In this document: positions 26,454 through 36,141 of the stretch, in pieces
How positions within the stretch are numbered: the first letter of the stretch is position 1
Layout: every line of letters begins with the position of its first letter
Position numbers and translations under genes: made by a program
The notes under the pieces: model-generated
Databases searched by the model: none
What the model saw: the letters and a program-made list of their open reading frames with translations, nothing else
What the model was told of the DNA's origin: nothing
NCBI GenBank assembly: GCA_964486045.1
Contig: CAZALK010000002.1
Span: 1-64,000 of the forward strand
Source of the DNA: an uncultured archaeon
GTDB lineage: Archaea > Asgardarchaeota > Lokiarchaeia > Sigyniarchaeales > SOKP01
Direction: 5' to 3'
Length of the DNA stretch: 64,000 bases

Positions 26454-28304
26454 ATGAAAATAAGAGATAAATTACTTATTGGGTTTACAGTCCTAATTGC
26501 AATCACAAGCGTTTTGGGCGTAGTAAGTGTCGTTCAGCTTAATACTATGAATGGTTATTACACTGAATTAGCTAATGTGGACTCAAAAGCCATGGAATAT
26601 ATGCAACAAATGAAATTGGAAGTAGATTATGTAATTCGAGATATGTTCATGTATTTAGATGGTGAGACAACTGGTACAAAAACCGACATCAACGAATCTG
26701 TTCAAGAATTTGATGTTTATTATACTAAAGTCAGAGATTTGCTTCCCGCATTTGCCGTTCGACTAGATGAGCTTGAGGATGACCACAATGAAATAATTGG
26801 TTATATCATAGATCCAGGCACAGGAGTGCTTGCAGAGCAAGATGCTATTTGGGCTCAAATTACTAATCTTCTTGCACTACATTCAGAACTTGACGCGGAT
26901 ATAGATGTATTATTAGGTTTGATAACTGATGCAACCATGAAATTGAATGTAACTGAAATGGGGTATTATCTCGCCATGCAAATGTTTTATGTATATGAAT
27001 ACATTTCGAATCCTGATGATTTGACCAAGAGTGAGTTCGCCGCTGCAGAGGCTGGTTTTGATGCCAGTGTTACTAATTTAACGGCGTTTTATGATCCAGT
27101 AAATGATTCTGTTATATACGATGCGGTTATAGAGATGGATGCTGATCATGCTGAATTTGCGGGTAACGTTACAGACGCAAGTGTTGGGATTTTCTCTCTG
27201 AAGGATTCTATAGAAGTTAAGCATATAGTTATCGGTGACCTACTTGATGAATTAACAAACGATTTACTTTTAATAGACATTGATATAGAAGCTGAAGTAG
27301 ATGCAAATAAAGTAGGTGCAGCTGCTGCCATGTCATCAGCGTTAATTATAACTATAACAATGATTGTAGTCGCAATCGTGGCAGGATTAGCTATTGCGTT
27401 CCCAACAATTAGGAGCATTACAAAGGCGATTGGTGGTTTAGTTAAAACAGCAGAATTTATAGCTAAAGGAGATCTTACAAACGAAATTGAAATATCAAAA
27501 AAAGTAAAAAGTGAAACTGATTTATTAAAAAATTCTTTCGGAGTAATGCAAGAGAATTTAGTCAAAGTAATCTCTAGTACCCAAACTGCAAGCATAAATG
27601 TGGCAAACATAGCAACAGAATTAGCTGCAAGTTCTAGCGAAGTAAACGCAGCTTCCGAAGAAATTTCTTCCAGTACACAAGAAGTTGCAATGACGGTGCA
27701 AACCCAGGTTAAAGCCCTTACTGATATTAGTTCTATGGCCAATGAAATTCAATCTCTATCACATGAGGTTAAAAGTTCCGGCAATGATATAGATAAAGTC
27801 ATGGAAATTATTGTAGGAATTTCCGAACAAACCAATTTACTCGCTCTTAATGCAAGCATTGAGGCTGGGCGGGCTGGTGAATACGGAAGAGGCTTCGCAG
27901 TTGTAGCGGATGAAGTACGAAAACTTGCTGAAGAGTCTAAGGTATCAGTTGAAACTTCTAGTAATAAAATCGCGGAAATTCTTTCTCGAATAGATAGAAC
28001 AGTTGAACTTATAGGAAATATTACAAATGATATTCAAGGAACTTTAGCGGGGCTTGAACAGACCTCTAGTGCAGTTGAAGGAATTAGCTCATCCACGGAA
28101 CAACAAACGGCTTCAATGGAAGAAGTTACATCCACAGCTAACAAATTGGGCTCGTTGGCAGAAGAGTTGAAAAGTGAATTAGAGATGTTTGTAATCGAGC
28201 AAGAAGGCATAAGAGGTCAAAGTAGAGAAGCTAAAAGTAGACCTCGAAGATTTGCTGAAATAGAATCAAGCGACGAAAAAGAAATAGTATTAATTAAAAA
28301 ATAA
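26454..28304 (+). CDS. Methyl-accepting chemotaxis protein, copy 3
   Basis: Same motifs as copy 1; 616 aa. Confidence 0.95.
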
Positions 28305-29016: not shown

Positions 29017-29679
29017 TCAAAAAGTATTTTCCATAAATTCTTCATTTAAAAAGTAGATTATCTTTTTTGACAAGCGTTTTCGAGTAATTACATTAAAATC
29101 TTCAAGAAAATCAAGGTATTTTGTTGTAGTGTTTATGTGAATCTTCAAATCTGTTGAGATTTTAGTCTTTGTAATTCCAATATCATTATTTTTAAGGTAA
29201 TCTATTATCATTCTACTTTTATCCTTGGAAGTAAAATAATTGAACTTGATATTTTTTAAATTAAAGTTAAAATGAAAATAAATCTCATGGTTGTCAATCC
29301 TTTCAGTTTTGATATATTTGAATTTCAATAACATACTCAGGTGCCAAATTACGACATGATTACTCATTTCTAATCTCTTTACAATTCTATTAAAATAAGT
29401 TCCTGGATTCTTTACAATAAAATCATATATCTTCTTACGTGTTAAATTTTTTAATATATCATTTTTAGTAAACTTGGAACCTTCTACAATTAGATTTTTG
29501 TTAACTAAAACTCTAAGCACATCTTCAATTCCTCTAAGATTAATGTTAATTGAAGCCATTTTAAACCTGGCGTGTATAAACGGGAGTATTTCTTTCATAT
29601 TGAAGTACCGGTTCTTATTAAGATACTCTTGAACAACGTTTAAAACAATTATTTCTTGTTTATGTATCTCATCTGGCAT
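29017..29679 (-). CDS. Double winged-HTH transcriptional regulator, cassette 2
   Basis: IYDFIVKNPGTYFNRI..HLSML plus a second wHTH; paralog of 32548. Confidence 0.85.
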   Translation of the reverse strand: MPDEIHKQEIIVLNVVQEYLNKNRYFNMKEILPFIHARFKMASININLRGIEDVLRVLVNKNLIVEGSKFTKNDILKNLTRKKIYDFIVKNPGTYFNRIVKRLEMSNHVVIWHLSMLLKFKYIKTERIDNHEIYFHFNFNLKNIKFNYFTSKDKSRMIIDYLKNNDIGITKTKISTDLKIHINTTTKYLDFLEDFNVITRKRLSKKIIYFLNEEFMENTF

Positions 29680-29711
29680 CTAAATACTGAATCCTTAATA
29701 ATTTACAATGT

Positions 29712-31034
29712 CTAATTACTAGTTTTGTTTAATCTTTTTAGCATCTTGGTTAGTATTGATTCTCGTTCATATGGAGTTAATGAGAGCATTTCTGTTATAA
29801 AATCATCCTTATCGTTTGCTTTCCATTCAAATTGATTGATTTTTTCCATAAAATCATCAGAAATAGCCGTAATGTTTAAATTTTCTAATTCTATCAAGTT
29901 TTCGATTACATTTTCTTCTTCAAACATTTGATGAAGGTTTAGTAGGTTTGTTTTCTCATCATGAGAAATTTTTTTTCTGCTTAATTTCCTTCGATAATTT
30001 TTGTTGTCATCTTCTAGAATTATAGTCGAATGAGTGTAGTGATAAACTGAATATACTAAACTTGCACTTATAGCCCCTATTATTAAAATTAAGACGATAA
30101 TCATGGTTAAAGGAAGAAATGCTCCTTTTAATCTCCAGAGACCTTCGATCCCAACTTTTGGATCATGAAAGATATGATCTCCACGCTGATAATTGATATA
30201 AATTTTCTGCTCATCTTCATCGTAATCATCTACTTCTAACATGCTAATTAATACTTCCTGTGATACATCATCTATAGTCGCATTTTCTTTCCAGGAGAAA
30301 AAACCAGTATATTTATTAATTGTCGTTGATACACTTTGTTCATCAAAAGTGTAACCTTCTTTTTCATCTTCAGTTTCTTCATCATTCTCGAATTCTAATC
30401 CTGAATTCAATTTTGTATATAGGGCAAGTTGGGAACTATTGTCTAAAAAATTAAATTCATTAATTTCGATATTAATTTTTATTTGATTGGGAGTAATTAT
30501 TGTTTCATTTATCACAGAAAATTCTTCCGAAATGTAAATATGAGTTGTAAAATTGTTGTCCTTTGTAGCAATCCTTAAATAACTTAAACTAGTTTCATTC
30601 GTAATGTCTATAATTGAATAATTAATTGGAGAGAAATCATCCAATAAAAGAATTTGGACTGTGAAATCTCTTTCAGAATCGAATATTCCGTTTTCATTAG
30701 TATCCACATATTCAACAATTTCTTGAAATTCTATACTAAACTCTAATTCAAATTCTGAACCAGAATCATAAACTGACTCATATCTAAATTCTACTCTAAA
30801 TCCATTTTCATCGTATTTAATATTATACCTTATTGCATCAATATTATCCCCGTTTTTCAAAATAGAAGTAATTTCAGTTTCATTCGCAAGAAATTCAATA
30901 TTCACATTTCTTTTATTTAATTCTTCAAAATCGTCATTAATCCCATCATCATCGTCATCAGAAGCAGTAACAAATCTCAAATTGAAGGAAAAAAGAAGAA
31001 TCATTAGAACCGGAAGGAAGTATTTTTTTCTCAT
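29712..31034 (-). CDS. Single-pass membrane protein: acidic ectodomain plus ~100-aa cytoplasmic tail, cassette 2
   Basis: Signal peptide; DDDGINDDFE; HDPKVG; TM; tail EMLSLTPYER. Confidence 0.85.
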   Translation of the reverse strand: MRKKYFLPVLMILLFSFNLRFVTASDDDDDGINDDFEELNKRNVNIEFLANETEITSILKNGDNIDAIRYNIKYDENGFRVEFRYESVYDSGSEFELEFSIEFQEIVEYVDTNENGIFDSERDFTVQILLLDDFSPINYSIIDITNETSLSYLRIATKDNNFTTHIYISEEFSVINETIITPNQIKINIEINEFNFLDNSSQLALYTKLNSGLEFENDEETEDEKEGYTFDEQSVSTTINKYTGFFSWKENATIDDVSQEVLISMLEVDDYDEDEQKIYINYQRGDHIFHDPKVGIEGLWRLKGAFLPLTMIIVLILIIGAISASLVYSVYHYTHSTIILEDDNKNYRRKLSRKKISHDEKTNLLNLHQMFEEENVIENLIELENLNITAISDDFMEKINQFEWKANDKDDFITEMLSLTPYERESILTKMLKRLNKTSN

Positions 31035-31271
31035 TTTTATTTATTAGATTTTGTTCTATTTGTATAAAATTTCAATTTTTTTTAAATTAATGCATAATAA
31101 TATATCTAATTTTAAATTTGAATAGTAATAAGATAACCTTGATTTAATGCTAAAATTAATAGTTTTGATAAACATCATCCACTTTTTTATAAGTTATGTA
31201 AATTTTTTTAATCAATTTTTGTGTTCCCTTCTACCTTACAATATAAAAAAAAAAAAAATATTTAAAATAAT

Positions 31272-32306
31272 TTAAGCAATTCTACGTTTTTTAACTACTA
31301 TTATTGCGACAACAGCAACTCCTATCAAAGAAACCACTACACTAGTAAGAACAATTGGCAAGATTGATTGTACATCCTGACCAACATTAATCCCAACTTT
31401 GGGATCATGATAGATATGATTGCCTCGTGGATAATTAAGAATCATTTTTTGCTGTGTTTCATTTTCATCATCTACTTGTAAGGAACTAGCTAATACATCC
31501 ATTATTACCCCATCAACAGTAGCATTTTCTTTCCAAGTAAAGATTCCAGAATATCCACCAAATTGAGTATAAACTCCTCTCTCATCGGTAGCGTATCCAT
31601 CATCTTCATCATTAGTCACTCCGTCTTCAGTATAATTAGCTTCAGAGTTAAGTTTGACATATAATGCAAGTTGTGAATCAACATCGGTATAATTGAAGCC
31701 ATTAATTTCAATGTCAATTTTTACTTGATTGGGTGTCACTAATATTTCATCAACGTATACAAATTCTTCTACAAAGAAAATGTGAGCTGAAAAAACATTA
31801 TCTGTAGTATTAACTACGAAATAATGTAAGGTAGTATCAGCTGAAATAATTGATGTCGTATTTTCAACAAGTTGAAGTGAGTTCAGTGTAAATTCTTGAA
31901 CGAATTGATCTATTGAATCTTCATACATACCATTATCGTTAAGATCAACGAATTCAATAAGTTTCTTAAACTCAACTTCAAATTCTACTTCCCATTCGGG
32001 AGTAATAGAAGAAACTTCAGGAATGGATTCAACTTCCGATCCATAAGAGACTTCAATGGATAAATCAGTGTCGTACTTAACTTTTAATTCTATTTCATCA
32101 ACCTTATCCCCATTCCTTCTGTGAGATTCAACTTTTATCTCATCAATCCCATATTCAACACTAATGTCTCTCTTATTTGCTTCTTCAAAATCGTCATCTA
32201 CACCATCGCTATCATCATCAGACTCAACTGCTACAACAGATCCTATAGTTGTTATTAGTAGAATGCTTAATAAAAAAAATCCTAACAAATTATATTTTTT
32301 ATTCAT
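31272..32306 (-). CDS. Membrane-anchored acidic surface protein, cassette 2
   Basis: Signal peptide; DSDGVDDDFE; HIYHDPKVG; C-terminal TM + KKRR. Confidence 0.85.
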   Translation of the reverse strand: MNKKYNLLGFFLLSILLITTIGSVVAVESDDDSDGVDDDFEEANKRDISVEYGIDEIKVESHRRNGDKVDEIELKVKYDTDLSIEVSYGSEVESIPEVSSITPEWEVEFEVEFKKLIEFVDLNDNGMYEDSIDQFVQEFTLNSLQLVENTTSIISADTTLHYFVVNTTDNVFSAHIFFVEEFVYVDEILVTPNQVKIDIEINGFNYTDVDSQLALYVKLNSEANYTEDGVTNDEDDGYATDERGVYTQFGGYSGIFTWKENATVDGVIMDVLASSLQVDDENETQQKMILNYPRGNHIYHDPKVGINVGQDVQSILPIVLTSVVVSLIGVAVVAIIVVKKRRIA

Positions 32307-32375
32307 AATAATATATCCCCTAAATAAGCTAAATTTTCATTAAATTGTTCTATTCTAGTGATCTTATTGTGAATA

Positions 32376-32401
32376 TATAAAACAAGTTGGTAACAGATTG
32401 A
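32376..32401 (-). promoter_or_regulatory. TATA box with conserved upstream element (TCAA-N4-TTACCA-N6-TTTATA)
   Basis: Same motif and spacing at 36116-36141. Confidence 0.55.
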
Positions 32402-32547
32402 GGTATATAATTTTACAAATTATATTTGTACTAATTTGTTAGAAAAACTTTAAAAAAGGGGTTCAATTTTATTCCAATTTATTATTATGGGTTATTAACT
32501 TCTTTTATCATTACTGAAGATAAAGAATTTGAACTAGTGAAATACTA

Positions 32548-33246
32548 TTATCTAGCTTCATCTGTATTGAGATAATTTTTCATATAAACATCACTCAAAA
32601 AATAGATGACTCTTTTTGATACTTTTTTTTTAACAACTATGTTGAATTGTTCAAATAATTTTAAGTATTTTGAGATAGTATTTGGATGCATTTTGAGACT
32701 TTTTGAAAGCTGAGTTTTGGTTATCCCGAAATCGTTGTTTTTTAAATAGTTAATAATTTTCTTACTTTTATCTTTTGATGTGATATAGGCAAATTTGGAG
32801 TTCTTAACCTCAAAATTCGAATCAAAATAAACATCATGGTTATCAAATTTCTCCTTCTTAATGAAATTAAACTTTAGTAAAACATTAAGGTGCCATACTA
32901 CTACATGATTAGATATATGCAATTCAGTCAATAACCGGTTGAAATAAATTCCAGGATTTTCTAAAATATAATCATAAATATGTTTTCTCTTCGAATTTAT
33001 TAATATATCACTACTAATTAACTTAGAACCCTCAACAATATGTTTCTTTTTTACTAACGATCTTAAAATTTCTTCAATTCGTCGAATATTTATGTCTACT
33101 GAGGCCATCCTAAAACGAGAGATTATAAATGGAAGTATTTCACTCATGTCAAAATATCTGTTCTTATTTAAATACTCTCCAACAACACCTAAAATGAGTT
33201 TTTCTTGTTCTGGTTGTTCAAATTGCATTATTTTAAGAAGCCTCAA
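32548..33246 (-). CDS. Double winged-HTH transcriptional regulator, cassette 1
   Basis: IYDYILENPGIYFNRL..HLNVL; likely start ATG 33228. Confidence 0.85.
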   Translation of the reverse strand: MRLLKIMQFEQPEQEKLILGVVGEYLNKNRYFDMSEILPFIISRFRMASVDINIRRIEEILRSLVKKKHIVEGSKLISSDILINSKRKHIYDYILENPGIYFNRLLTELHISNHVVVWHLNVLLKFNFIKKEKFDNHDVYFDSNFEVKNSKFAYITSKDKSKKIINYLKNNDFGITKTQLSKSLKMHPNTISKYLKLFEQFNIVVKKKVSKRVIYFLSDVYMKNYLNTDEAR

Positions 33247-33259
33247 TTACTTACCCATT

Positions 33260-34597
33260 TTACGACACAGATTCAGATTTTTCGACCATCTCATCAAGGA
33301 TTAATTTTCTTTCATAGGGAGTTAAAGCTAACATTTCTTGAATGAATTCATTTTTTTCGTTTCCTTTCCAATTAAAATGGTTCACAGTTTCGTAGAATTC
33401 TTCAGTGACTACTGTAATATTGAGACTTCCTAACCGGGCAAGCTTCTCAACAGATTTTTCTTCAAAAAATAACTGAAGTGGTGAGGGTTCTTCATAACGA
33501 TCTTCAACTTCATTTTCCTCAAAAATTTCATTAAAATATTCTTCTCTATCTTTCCGAATCTTTTTTAGAGGAGATTTTTTAATCCCAAAATGGTAAACAG
33601 AATAAACTACGCTTACGCTTACAGCCCCGATAATTAATACCCCGACCACGAAAGGAATTGGGGAAATCGGCTCTGTTAATGCAATTAATAAATCTTCAAT
33701 ACCAACTTTGGGATCATGATATATGTGATCTCCATGTTGATAATTGAGATATATTTTTTGTTCATATTCATCATGATTATCTAACGTTATATCACTTATT
33801 GGTATTTCATGAGTGTTTTCATCAATCGTGGCAAATCGCTTCCATGTAAGATAACCTGTTTTACCTTCAAAAGATGTGATCACACCTTGTTCATTCTCAG
33901 CATAACCATTTGTTTCATCTTCTGTTTTCTCTATATGTTCATAATTTGTCTCAGATTCTAGTTTTGTATACAACGCGAGATTTGAACTAGTATTAATATA
34001 ATCAAAGTTTGAAATCTCAATATCGATTTTTAATTGTGTAGGGGTGATTAATGAATCATTAACAATTGTGAATTCTTCTGCTAAATAAATATGAGTAGTG
34101 AAAGTATTATTGATGGTACTTATCTTGAAGTAGTGTAAGGAACTTTCATCTGATATCGATAATATCGTGTAATTTGCAGGTTGGAAGTTTCCAATTGAAA
34201 AATTTTGAATCTTTTGATCAACTTCAGGATCATAAATTCCATTCTTCTCTTCTTCACTGTCAATAAACTCAATTATTTCTTGAAAAACAATACTAAATGT
34301 AAATTCCGGGGGTGCTTCTAAGTTTGACCTATAGGCAAAGCTAATACTAATTCCATCTTCGTTATATCCTATATTTATTCTTATACGGTCTTTATTGTTA
34401 TCAGTTCGCCTAATTGAGTCTATTTGGATTTCATTAGCAAAAATATCCGTTTCTACGTTTCTCAAATTAAGTTTTTCAAATTCATCATTTACTTGATCAC
34501 CATCCTCATCAAAAGCTTTAACTGAATTGAGATTAAAACTTAAAAGTAAGATCCCAAAAAAGAAGATTCCTATCAAATAATACTTTCTTTTCATCAT
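33260..34597 (-). CDS. Single-pass membrane protein: acidic ectodomain plus cytoplasmic tail, cassette 1
   Basis: Paralog of 29712; tail EMLALTPYER. Confidence 0.85.
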   Translation of the reverse strand: MMKRKYYLIGIFFFGILLLSFNLNSVKAFDEDGDQVNDEFEKLNLRNVETDIFANEIQIDSIRRTDNNKDRIRINIGYNEDGISISFAYRSNLEAPPEFTFSIVFQEIIEFIDSEEEKNGIYDPEVDQKIQNFSIGNFQPANYTILSISDESSLHYFKISTINNTFTTHIYLAEEFTIVNDSLITPTQLKIDIEISNFDYINTSSNLALYTKLESETNYEHIEKTEDETNGYAENEQGVITSFEGKTGYLTWKRFATIDENTHEIPISDITLDNHDEYEQKIYLNYQHGDHIYHDPKVGIEDLLIALTEPISPIPFVVGVLIIGAVSVSVVYSVYHFGIKKSPLKKIRKDREEYFNEIFEENEVEDRYEEPSPLQLFFEEKSVEKLARLGSLNITVVTEEFYETVNHFNWKGNEKNEFIQEMLALTPYERKLILDEMVEKSESVS

Positions 34598-34824
34598 ATC
34601 AATCTAATTTGTAAATAATCCTTTTCTGTATTGGTTTTTATTTTAGATAACTTTTTCACAAAACTTTTTTTACCTATTTTTATTAAATGAAACTTATCAG
34701 AAACATACCAATAATGATAAATAAATTTGATTTAGTCTGGTGTTATTTTCTAGCATTTTTTGAATTTTTTTTTGATAATTAAAATAAAAAAAAATTTTTT
34801 ATATATTTAGGGATTCTGTGTACA

Positions 34825-36051
34825 TTAAATTATTCTACGTTTTCTCATCATGACTAAAGCAACAGTAGTAATTCCAACAATAGAAGCAAAGCTACCTGTA
34901 ATAATAATTGGAATCAATATACTTGGTGTTTGAATTACATTAATATATATTCCAATTTTTGGATCATGATAAATATGATTTCCTCTGGGGTAGCTGATAT
35001 ACAGTTTCTCTAGATGTTCATCTTCTCCATCCATTATTATTCTATTCGTGAATACAGGCATTTCGACACCATCAATAAGAGCAGTCTCTTTCCAACTAAA
35101 AATTCCAGTATATTCCTCATTATGAATGTATACTTCTTTTTCTTCGGAAGCATACCCGTCCTTTTCATCCTCTGTTTCTTCTTTCTCCTCGTAACTTATT
35201 GCTTCAGACCATAATTTAGTATATAAAGCTAGTTGAGAATTAGTATCAACATAATTATAATTAGTAATTTCAATGTCTACCTTTACCTGGGTTGGAGAAA
35301 TGAGTGTCTCATCAATATAAACGAATTCTTCTACGAAATAAATGTGAGTAGCAAAAACACCATCTGTAGTATTCAGTAAGATATAATGTAAATTAGTGTC
35401 TTCAGAAATACTTATTAAAGAATATTCTACTGGTTGAAAGGAATTAAATCCGTAATCTTCTATTATCTCATCAATTTCAAAGTCTAAAATATCGTTGTCA
35501 TTAAGATCTACGAATTCTATAAGTCCTCGAAACCATACTTCAAATTTCAACTTATGGAGAATTATTTCACAGTCATTTACCCAATGCAGTTCACCCTCTT
35601 CACCATCAGATTCAGGTTCTTCTTGAGGTTCCTCGCATTCAGGATTTTTAATAATTGTTCCAAAGGAGACTCGGACAGAAATACCCCCCTCACCAAAACC
35701 TACCCTCATATCAATTATATCTTTTTGATCGCCATGTCTTCGAATTGAGCCCATTTCAACAACGTTTTCTCCAATCCATATGGATATGTCTCTCTTATTA
35801 TCATCTTCAAAATTGTCGTCGACTCCATCATTATCATCGTCTGGTATATCTGGTTCTTCATCATCAGGGTGATCAGGTTCTTTTGGTTCTTCATCAGGTT
35901 CATCTGGTTCTTCATCACCAGGGTGATCAGGTTCATCTGGTTCTTCATCACCAGGCAGGTCATCTTCAATAGCAAAAGAATTACTTAGACTTGCCGATAT
36001 AAATAGCATCCCTAATAAAAATACTCCAATTAAAAAAATTTTTCTTTTCAT
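34825..36051 (-). CDS. Membrane-anchored acidic surface protein with D/E/P repeats, cassette 1
   Basis: Paralog of 31272; HIYHDPKIG; TM + RKRR. Confidence 0.85.
   Translation of the reverse strand: MKRKIFLIGVFLLGMLFISASLSNSFAIEDDLPGDEEPDEPDHPGDEEPDEPDEEPKEPDHPDDEEPDIPDDDNDGVDDNFEDDNKRDISIWIGENVVEMGSIRRHGDQKDIIDMRVGFGEGGISVRVSFGTIIKNPECEEPQEEPESDGEEGELHWVNDCEIILHKLKFEVWFRGLIEFVDLNDNDILDFEIDEIIEDYGFNSFQPVEYSLISISEDTNLHYILLNTTDGVFATHIYFVEEFVYIDETLISPTQVKVDIEITNYNYVDTNSQLALYTKLWSEAISYEEKEETEDEKDGYASEEKEVYIHNEEYTGIFSWKETALIDGVEMPVFTNRIIMDGEDEHLEKLYISYPRGNHIYHDPKIGIYINVIQTPSILIPIIITGSFASIVGITTVALVMMRKRRII
35848..35955 (-). repeat. Intragenic tandem repeats encoding (G)DEEPDEPDHP
   Basis: Repeated TCTGGTTCTTCATCA/CAGGGTGATCAGGTTC units on the + strand. 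Confidence 0.8.
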
Positions 36052-36115
36052 TATAAAACCTTATTTTAAATAATTTTTCATAGATTGACTTATAATTATA
36101 ATTTCTACGCCCTAA

Positions 36116-36141
36116 TATAAACTAAAATGGTAAAAATTTGA
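36116..36141 (-). promoter_or_regulatory. TATA box with conserved upstream element, cassette 1
   Basis: Matches 32376-32401 with identical spacing. Confidence 0.55.

Follow-up and report, generated by a model that had tools for sequence, protein, structure and literature searches.

RESULTS

Two A-B-C cassettes at the locus

The stretch of DNA analyzed here (the window) comprises 64,000 nucleotides of contig CAZALK010000002.1 from an uncultured archaeon of the Asgard order Sigyniarchaeales, whose genome (here, the host genome) is represented by 5.18 Mb in 45 contigs. Among the sequencing runs listed as containing this DNA, none was an RNA run, and the three DNA runs were marine sediment metagenomes, one of them perhaps the source. 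In the region 29017-36051, six open reading frames (ORFs), all on the minus strand, form two tandem copies of a three-gene unit, A-B-C, just as an earlier reading of the nucleotide sequence (the original prediction) had proposed; the upstream cassette consists of A2, B2, and C2 and the downstream cassette of A1, B1, and C1 (Table 1). We favor, with slightly better than even confidence, the interpretation that each cassette is a kinase-free transmembrane signaling unit in which the membrane protein B sequesters and releases the winged-helix (WH) protein C.

A and B share one topology, a signal peptide followed by an acidic ectodomain (pI ~4.1-4.2) and a single membrane helix near the C terminus. 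A (pI 4.1) ends in a basic tail of 6 residues beyond this helix, which agrees with its earlier description as an acidic surface protein with a short basic tail, and B extends into a tail of ~110 residues, with a Lys/Arg-rich stretch marking the cytoplasmic side. The gaps between B and C are 32 and 31 nt, matching the earlier estimate that C starts within about 32 bp of the B stop, and these spacers hold a GGA/GAGG word that resembles a ribosome site. For C2, we used the ATG start of the database gene call; the ORF lister instead begins at a TTG at 33246.

C1 and C2 share 59% protein identity, the four A/B ectodomains share 41-49% identity in their alignment, and a relative's genome holds both cassettes in the same context as the window. 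This between-copy divergence (41-59% protein identity), together with the relative, therefore rules out a recent duplication or an assembly artifact, and since other genomes contain separate orthologs of each window cassette, the tandem duplication is old. In a midpoint-rooted FastTree tree of the ectodomains, A and B do not split into two clean clades, and for this reason we do not propose an order for the duplications.

The B tail and C form a portable module

The A-B-C unit was found in three different genomic contexts, with consecutive public locus tags. In the loci that we fetched, each of the 41 tail-bearing B genes of the GLMP type (the ectodomain type of the window, described below) is followed directly by C on the same strand, and 38 of them are also directly preceded by A. 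An additional 29 C paralogs, chosen by the C profile alone and covering all loci where upstream DNA is present, are each immediately preceded by a gene for a membrane protein ending in the same tail domain (29/29). When the module is defined as a tail-ended membrane protein followed by a triple-WH gene on the same strand, it is present in 70/70 pairs in the fetched loci, both window cassettes included, with a distance of 27-173 nt between the tail and C domain ends. The original prediction had expected B and C to be linked in other genomes as well, and the synteny survey finds this linkage to be strict.

The conserved core of the tail reads approximately N-h-T-A-h-S..F..h..F.W...EK.EFI.EML.LTP.ER. 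Tail receptors outside the GLMP type carry a NosD/right-handed beta-helix, GH9 with CBM3 and fn3, LamG, a Kelch propeller, or an SBBP propeller as ectodomain, or have an ectodomain without a Pfam match, and many of them possess two tandem tail domains (loci L029, L070, L072, L075, L076, L077, L079, and L080), which could recruit two C molecules. The host genome encodes exactly three tail proteins, each adjoining a C-like gene. At E ≤ 1e-30, the C family was found in 114/134 genomes of family f1, 9/14 of f3, and 1/4 of f4, and in 0 of the other sampled genomes of the phylum, a distribution confined to the window's own order. The tail and C are a portable module that is used by many unrelated ectodomains and is found only in this order. 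Searches with the B tail gave no match in Pfam or NCBIfam and no usable match in a protein atlas feature search. A likeness of its NIT..SEDF stretch (B2 residues ~385-405; window 33380-33445, minus strand) to the end of the PARP1 BRCT domain was at chance level (E = 0.37, B profile against PDB sequences) and was discarded.

Further members of the tail family combine the domain with other functions. One locus (L085 712-3828, minus strand, genome G161) encodes a 1038-aa membrane-anchored GH9 cellulase with CBM3 and fn3 domains that has the tail domain at its end and its own C paralog downstream; this cellulase appears to double as a receptor. In addition, a 264-aa protein consists of two N-terminal membrane helices, a tail domain (E ~1e-7 to 1e-8), and a C-terminal ubiquitin-family domain (PF00240, E = 3e-5), and its gene lies directly downstream of a C-like triple-WH gene both in the host genome (C5:167529-168323 and C5:168408-169076, both minus strand) and at locus L026 (1530-2324 and 2409-3077). 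This 264-aa family comprises dozens of clusters in Asgard assemblies and may link the tail/WH module to ubiquitin-like signaling.

Predicted docking of C on the B tail

Modeled as a complex, C and B2 residues 336-445 reached an ipSAE of 0.84 in 3/3 runs versus 0.00 for the best of 3 controls; the value of 0.84 is reached by 58/80 solved complexes and by 2/110 mismatched pairs, counts that hold approximately, since the alignments were our own. Agreement between the runs covers at least 83% of contacts, with a partner pLDDT of at least 73. In the predicted interface, the tail core (372-441) packs against WH1, including its wing (62-70 against the NIT strand 393-396), and against the recognition-helix side of WH2 (106-119), and WH3 is left free. 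We know of no similar solved complex. The model, as a prediction, supports binding between B and C.

Covariation was calculated from 70 paired tail/C sequences, a set separate from the input of the complex model. The top inter-protein covarying pair of ~24,000, C111-B436, is one of the 25 lowest-error contacts of the model and shows a charge swap, V/I occurring mostly with E/D and E occurring with N/K/R in 11/11. Corrected mutual information averages 0.053 over the 25 listed contacts, compared with a background of -0.007, and 0 of 20,000 random sets reach 0.053. When the two window cassettes are compared, a smaller share of the interface positions than of the remaining positions differs (11/41 versus 45/99 in C and 24/44 versus 49/64 in the tail). 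The cassettes do differ at the covarying site, with E436 in B2 and K in B1, and a cognate B-C preference is therefore possible.

The interaction of the B tail with C that the original prediction called for is thus found well above controls and is backed by covariation and by the fusions described below. Its proposal that B tethers C by an anti-sigma or ToxR-like logic holds as far as tethering is concerned, on the computational grounds of linkage, model, covariation, and fusions, and needs correction in that docking is predicted to involve WH1 plus WH2, not the N-terminal domain alone. The B tail very probably holds C at the membrane.

Natural fusions and membrane-anchored forms of C

In two single-contig genomes of a sister family, G143 and G138, a GLMP-like ectodomain and its membrane helix continue directly into WH2-WH3 as a single protein, of 550 aa and 561 aa, respectively. 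These fusions are without the tail and without WH1, exactly the two parts predicted to touch. The host genome itself encodes a 342-aa form of C with two membrane helices before WH1-3 (C42:145-1173, minus strand) and a 245-aa form in which two N-terminal membrane helices are followed by WH2-WH3 (PF24266 plus PF13412; C3:68367-69104, plus strand), both without a tail-bearing neighbor. Other membrane-anchored C forms are found at loci L030, L031, and L027.

C is a basic triple winged-helix protein

C was originally described as a soluble double winged helix-turn-helix (HTH) regulator with an extra N-terminal domain. C is without a membrane helix, and the model (pLDDT 90.4) shows three consecutive winged helices, so that the extra domain is itself a winged helix and C a triple-WH protein. 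WH2 and WH3 are the domains that match HTH_HVO_0163_N (PF24266, cut-off 31 bits) and HTH_24 (PF13412, cut-off 21.9 bits): C2 scores above both cut-offs (34.5 and 31.1 bits), and C1 falls just below the first (30.6 bits) and above the second (25.4 bits). C did not reach the cut-offs of the ArsR/SmtB (NF033788, 55 bits) and SdpR (NF033789, 100 bits) models, for which its best scores were 34.4 and 32.2 bits. Below threshold, WH3 matches the SdpR model (E = 7e-8, 32 bits), WH2/WH3 also match MarR models, and single WH domains of C superpose on the ArsR/SmtB repressors SmtB, CzrA, and CadC (TM score by target ~0.7). No sigma-70 family domain was found in C with Pfam or NCBIfam; to our knowledge, archaea are without sigma factors. 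C has a pI of 9.7, and WH3 of C2, which lies outside the predicted interface, has a net charge of +13; the B tails are acidic. Overall, C looks like a DNA binder.

The A/B ectodomain is GLMP-like by fold

Residues 45-306 of B2 were modeled (AlphaFold2, 60-sequence alignment) as an all-beta domain with a pLDDT of >90. Its top Foldseek match is the luminal domain of GLMP, a lysosomal protein of eukaryotes (8R8Q_B and 6NYQ_C; E ~2e-10), and a VIA search, independent of Foldseek, likewise returned GLMP (Z 21.3, 257 residues, rmsd 7.8) with an alignment that extends into the membrane helix; the VIA matches after GLMP, at Z ≤ 13.1, are generic galactose-mutarotase-like supersandwich domains of glycoside hydrolases, polysaccharide lyases, and YidC. 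Identity in the B2-GLMP structural alignments is 9-10%. The gathering score of Pfam PF15065 (NCU-G1, 27 bits) was not reached, with no match in the host genome at E ≤ 10 and none in the six window proteins at E ≤ 1. Among Pfam families, PF15065 is matched by the most B homologs, yet below threshold (9/60, best E = 4.8e-4). Since GLMP is the top structural match without a Pfam match in the genome, we call the domain GLMP-like by fold; homology to GLMP is plausible.

The layout is also that of GLMP (PF15065; PDB 6NYQ, 8R8Q chain B), which shares with A a signal peptide, a luminal/external beta-supersandwich, one C-terminal membrane helix, and a short tail. Unlike GLMP, the archaeal proteins have DxDxDG-type acidic loops and occur as A/B pairs, and B has a cytoplasmic tail predicted to serve in docking. 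Two acidic loops are invariant, DxDxDGxxDxFE near the N terminus and D-x-N-x-N-G after an EF(V/I)D motif, and we take them to resemble DxDxDG-type calcium sites. All of the motifs from which a common ectodomain of A and B had been proposed fall into invariant or near-invariant alignment columns. N-glycosylation sequons, at 1, 5, 6, and 7 per ectodomain, show no clear enrichment; their number is weakly above that in shuffled sequence (P = 0.02-0.04) for A1 and B1 only.

The ectodomain family comprises 215 clusters at 90% identity, all from Asgard assemblies and named only "hypothetical," and 1253 representatives at E ≤ 0.001 in an unnamed 50%-identity library, with strong matches across many families of the phylum. 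In the host genome, the ectodomain occurs only in the four cassette genes and in one distant paralog of 399 aa outside the cassettes (C4:91464-92663, plus strand; E = 1.6e-16 to the ectodomain profile), which probably belongs to a more widespread branch behind the weak matches (E ~1e-10) in many genomes of the phylum. Among the genes next to the cassettes, none encodes a partner of the major facilitator superfamily. No paper joining GLMP and Asgard was found in the literature.

Promoter and terminator signals

A composite element, TCAA-N4-TTACCA-N6-TTTATAT, that combines a candidate operator with a TATA box has 2 occurrences in the 5.18-Mb genome, one before each A gene (Table 1). The composite motif, with a TTTATAT(A) end, also precedes A genes in relatives. 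Its four spacer nucleotides (N4) are specific to each cassette, and a relative retains them in its orthologous cassettes. Together with the T runs after the A stops, this promoter element suggests that A is transcribed apart from B-C, in which case A would be its own transcription unit with a candidate operator and B-C would be a second unit. The occurrence of the element at just the two A genes weakly suggests that C may control A, as the original prediction had proposed.

Table 1. Genes and sequence features of the two cassettes (positions in the window)
Feature	Position	Strand	Length	Description	Basis
A2	34825..36051	-	408 aa	Signal peptide, acidic Pro/Asp/Glu-rich N-terminal stretch, GLMP-like ectodomain with insertion, membrane helix, tail RKRRII	
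B2	33260..34597	-	445 aa	Signal peptide, GLMP-like ectodomain ~30-310, membrane helix 316-334, cytoplasmic tail 336-445	
B2 cytoplasmic tail domain	33263..33592	-		Residues 336-445; conserved helical core ~372-441 predicted to dock C	
C2	32548..33228	-	226 aa	Basic triple winged-helix protein; WH1 5-70, WH2 79-136, WH3 153-211	
A1	31272..32306	-	344 aa	Signal peptide, GLMP-like ectodomain, membrane helix, tail KKRRIA	
B1	29712..31034	-	440 aa	B2 paralog, identical architecture; tail at 29715-30044	
C1	29017..29679	-	220 aa	Triple winged-helix paralog of C2	
Composite element before A2	36115..36141	-		TCAA-N4-TTACCA-N6-TTTATAT (candidate operator plus TATA box), ~70 nt before A2 start	alignment
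Composite element before A1	32375..32401	-		Same composite element, TCAA-N4-TTACCA-N6-TTTATAT, ~75 nt before A1 start	alignment
T14 run	31245..31258	-		13 nt after A1 stop; likely archaeal oligo-T terminator between A1 and B1-C1	termination inferred
T9 run	34786..34794	-		30 nt after A2 stop; likely terminator between A2 and B2-C2	termination inferred

DISCUSSION

In the mechanism that we favor, B would be a single-pass receptor with an outward acidic, probably Ca2+-binding, GLMP-like beta-supersandwich ectodomain, and its conserved helical tail would dock the WH1-WH2 part of the cognate C, which is probably co-translated with B from the same mRNA. Docking would keep C at the membrane and cover the recognition-helix side of WH2. 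A change in the ectodomain, perhaps triggered by a glycan, a surface ligand, or the state of the anchored paralog A, would then release or re-orient C, and the basic WH3/WH2 surfaces thus freed would act on the A gene at the unique element flanking its TATA box. The carbohydrate-active ectodomains found in the tail family, together with the supersandwich fold, suggest that the ligand is a glycan or a surface ligand.

Several of our observations weigh against this mechanism or parts of it. As the covalently fused relatives show, reversibility is not a necessary part of tethering, and the release of C is therefore a guess. Covariation past the top pairs is modestly enriched at the predicted interface (4 of the top 20 versus 1.5 expected), and the listed contacts share residues and are not independent. 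The TCAA-N4-TTACCA core taken alone occurs at chance frequency (20 seen, 22 expected), and we rejected it as an enriched operator. Moreover, C paralogs that belong to different receptors show almost no variation in the recognition helices of WH2 and WH3. One would not expect this of regulators that each have their own targets, and a protein partner common to them would fit it as well. Finally, the fold matches of the whole C protein are tandem-WH scaffolds (Pol III RPC34, TFIIIC, ESCRT-II, ScpB, and SelB, at E ~1e-4, and also UFL1/DDRGK1) and not a specific repressor.

The main rival, which we consider possible if somewhat unlikely, is that B and C form a permanently membrane-resident transcription factor, ToxR/CadC-like but non-covalent, in which the ectodomain alters oligomerization or DNA affinity and the chromosome is bound at the membrane. 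Such an arrangement exists in covalent form in the relatives with an ectodomain, a membrane helix, and WH2-WH3 in one protein, other paralogs anchor all three WH domains by membrane helices of their own, and tandem tails would position two C molecules next to each other as in a dimeric DNA binder, with WH3 free in the model. The predicted interface, however, covers the recognition-helix side of WH2 (106-119), so that docked C would have one of its DNA-reading surfaces blocked, and a split, non-covalent design is most simply explained by reversibility.

It is also conceivable, and in our view improbable, that C is not a DNA-binding regulator and instead acts as a tandem-WH adaptor that couples many receptor tails to a shared partner, such as basal transcription factors or ubiquitin-like or trafficking machinery. 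The scaffold-like fold matches and the nearly invariant WH2/WH3 helices noted above would be accommodated by this idea, as would a weak Pfam RNA_pol_Rpc34 match of C (E = 0.033) and the pairing of the conserved 264-aa membrane protein, with its tail and ubiquitin domains, with a C-like gene. An adaptor would not be expected to match DNA-binding HTH families (HTH_24 and HTH_HVO_0163_N, and below threshold ArsR, SdpR, and MarR), to be as strongly basic as C, or to come with a unique conserved element beside the TATA box of both A genes. Very improbable is the absence of any physical link, with A and B as surface proteins that resemble GLMP and have a structural or accessory role (such as the protection or assistance of a transporter) and C as an ordinary local repressor in the same operon, since this reading, even though operon neighbors often do not bind each other and GLMP/NCU-G1 itself serves the lysosomal dipeptide uniporter MFSD1 as an accessory subunit and has no signaling role (PMC11252000), leaves unexplained the same tail on unrelated receptors, each with its own C paralog, as well as the fusions, the ipSAE of the complex compared with its controls, and the covarying contact pair.

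A bolder extension, which we consider unlikely, would make the pair of tail and triple-WH protein the main kinase-free receptor system of this Asgard order and the archaeal equivalent of sigma/anti-sigma signaling, with C proteins as RPC34/TFIIE-like tandem-WH factors at the membrane that act via the basal transcription machinery, not as classic repressors, and read extracellular glycans by way of the various carbohydrate-active ectodomains, and with the A/B ectodomain as the prokaryotic ancestor of lysosomal GLMP.

Systems in which a transcription factor is tethered or sequestered by a membrane protein are already known, and it is the parts and the lineage that are new. One-polypeptide regulators such as ToxR and CadC have a sensor outside, one membrane helix, and a DNA-binding domain inside, and the G143 and G138 fusions are built in exactly this way. 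The window version differs in that it is split into two separate genes, B and C, in that its winged helices are ArsR/MarR-like and not of the OmpR type, and in that the orientation is reversed, the DNA-binding domain of ToxR being N-terminal. Archaeal membrane-anchored double-HTH proteins of the HVO_0163 type (PF24266 plus PF13412) contain the same pair of domains as WH2-WH3 of C; unlike them, C has no membrane helix, possesses the extra WH1, and is predicted to be brought to the membrane by the B tail. For HVO_0163, the literature search returned no functional study.

By analogy, the sequestration and release that we favor would come closest in logic to RsgI/SigI and SdpI/SdpR, built from unrelated parts. 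RsgI/SigI of Clostridium thermocellum and Bacilli are polysaccharide-sensing anti-sigma/sigma pairs (PMC6582324, PMC10328401). As in the Asgard system, they involve paralogous single-pass membrane proteins, each beside its cognate transcription factor, with a cytoplasmic docking domain, carbohydrate-binding or glycoside hydrolase sensors, and no kinase, and the Asgard tail family likewise carries GH9 plus CBM3, beta-helix, LamG, and Kelch ectodomains. The two have no sequence or fold relation. Here, the partner is a triple-WH protein and not a member of the sigma-70 family, the topology is inverted, with the sensor N-terminal and the docking domain C-terminal, and no autoproteolytic or intramembrane proteolysis step is known for the Asgard system. 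In SdpI/SdpR of Bacillus subtilis, an ArsR-type winged-helix regulator is sequestered by a membrane protein of the same operon (PMC2910880). SdpI is polytopic and without a large ectodomain, and SdpR has one WH domain, whereas C has three and is predicted to dock through WH1-WH2.

No paper on this receptor-regulator system was found, including on Asgard membrane-bound transcription or winged helices. New here are the docking domain of ~70 aa common to many receptor types, a complex scored against controls, a covarying contact pair, and a promoter composite that is unique in the genome. Asgard archaea are the closest known relatives of eukaryotes, and their signal transduction is almost unstudied. 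The cassettes offer a testable receptor-to-gene pathway made of parts without a described function: a docking domain, its triple-WH partner, and an ectodomain nearest to a eukaryotic lysosomal glycoprotein. The recurrence of the module with glycan-active ectodomains may account for the sensing of polymers, or of their own surface, by these sediment archaea, and the likeness to GLMP puts one more candidate among the eukaryote-like membrane proteins that have their roots in archaea.

The genes that flank the cassettes, a chemoreceptor, a ThiS/Urm1-like gene, NMT1, DsrE, and PALP, seem unrelated. A methyl-accepting chemotaxis gene (MCPsignal, HAMP, 4HB) at 26454-28304 on the plus strand stops ~700 nt beyond the C1 end, with no cassette link seen. 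Within the upstream cassette, A2 has an additional acidic Pro-rich low-complexity stretch after the signal peptide (PDEPD/HPGDEEPD-type repeats; window 35840-35970, minus strand) and also an extra insertion of ~20 residues in its ectodomain, and both the insertion and the Pro-rich stretch are kept in A2 orthologs.

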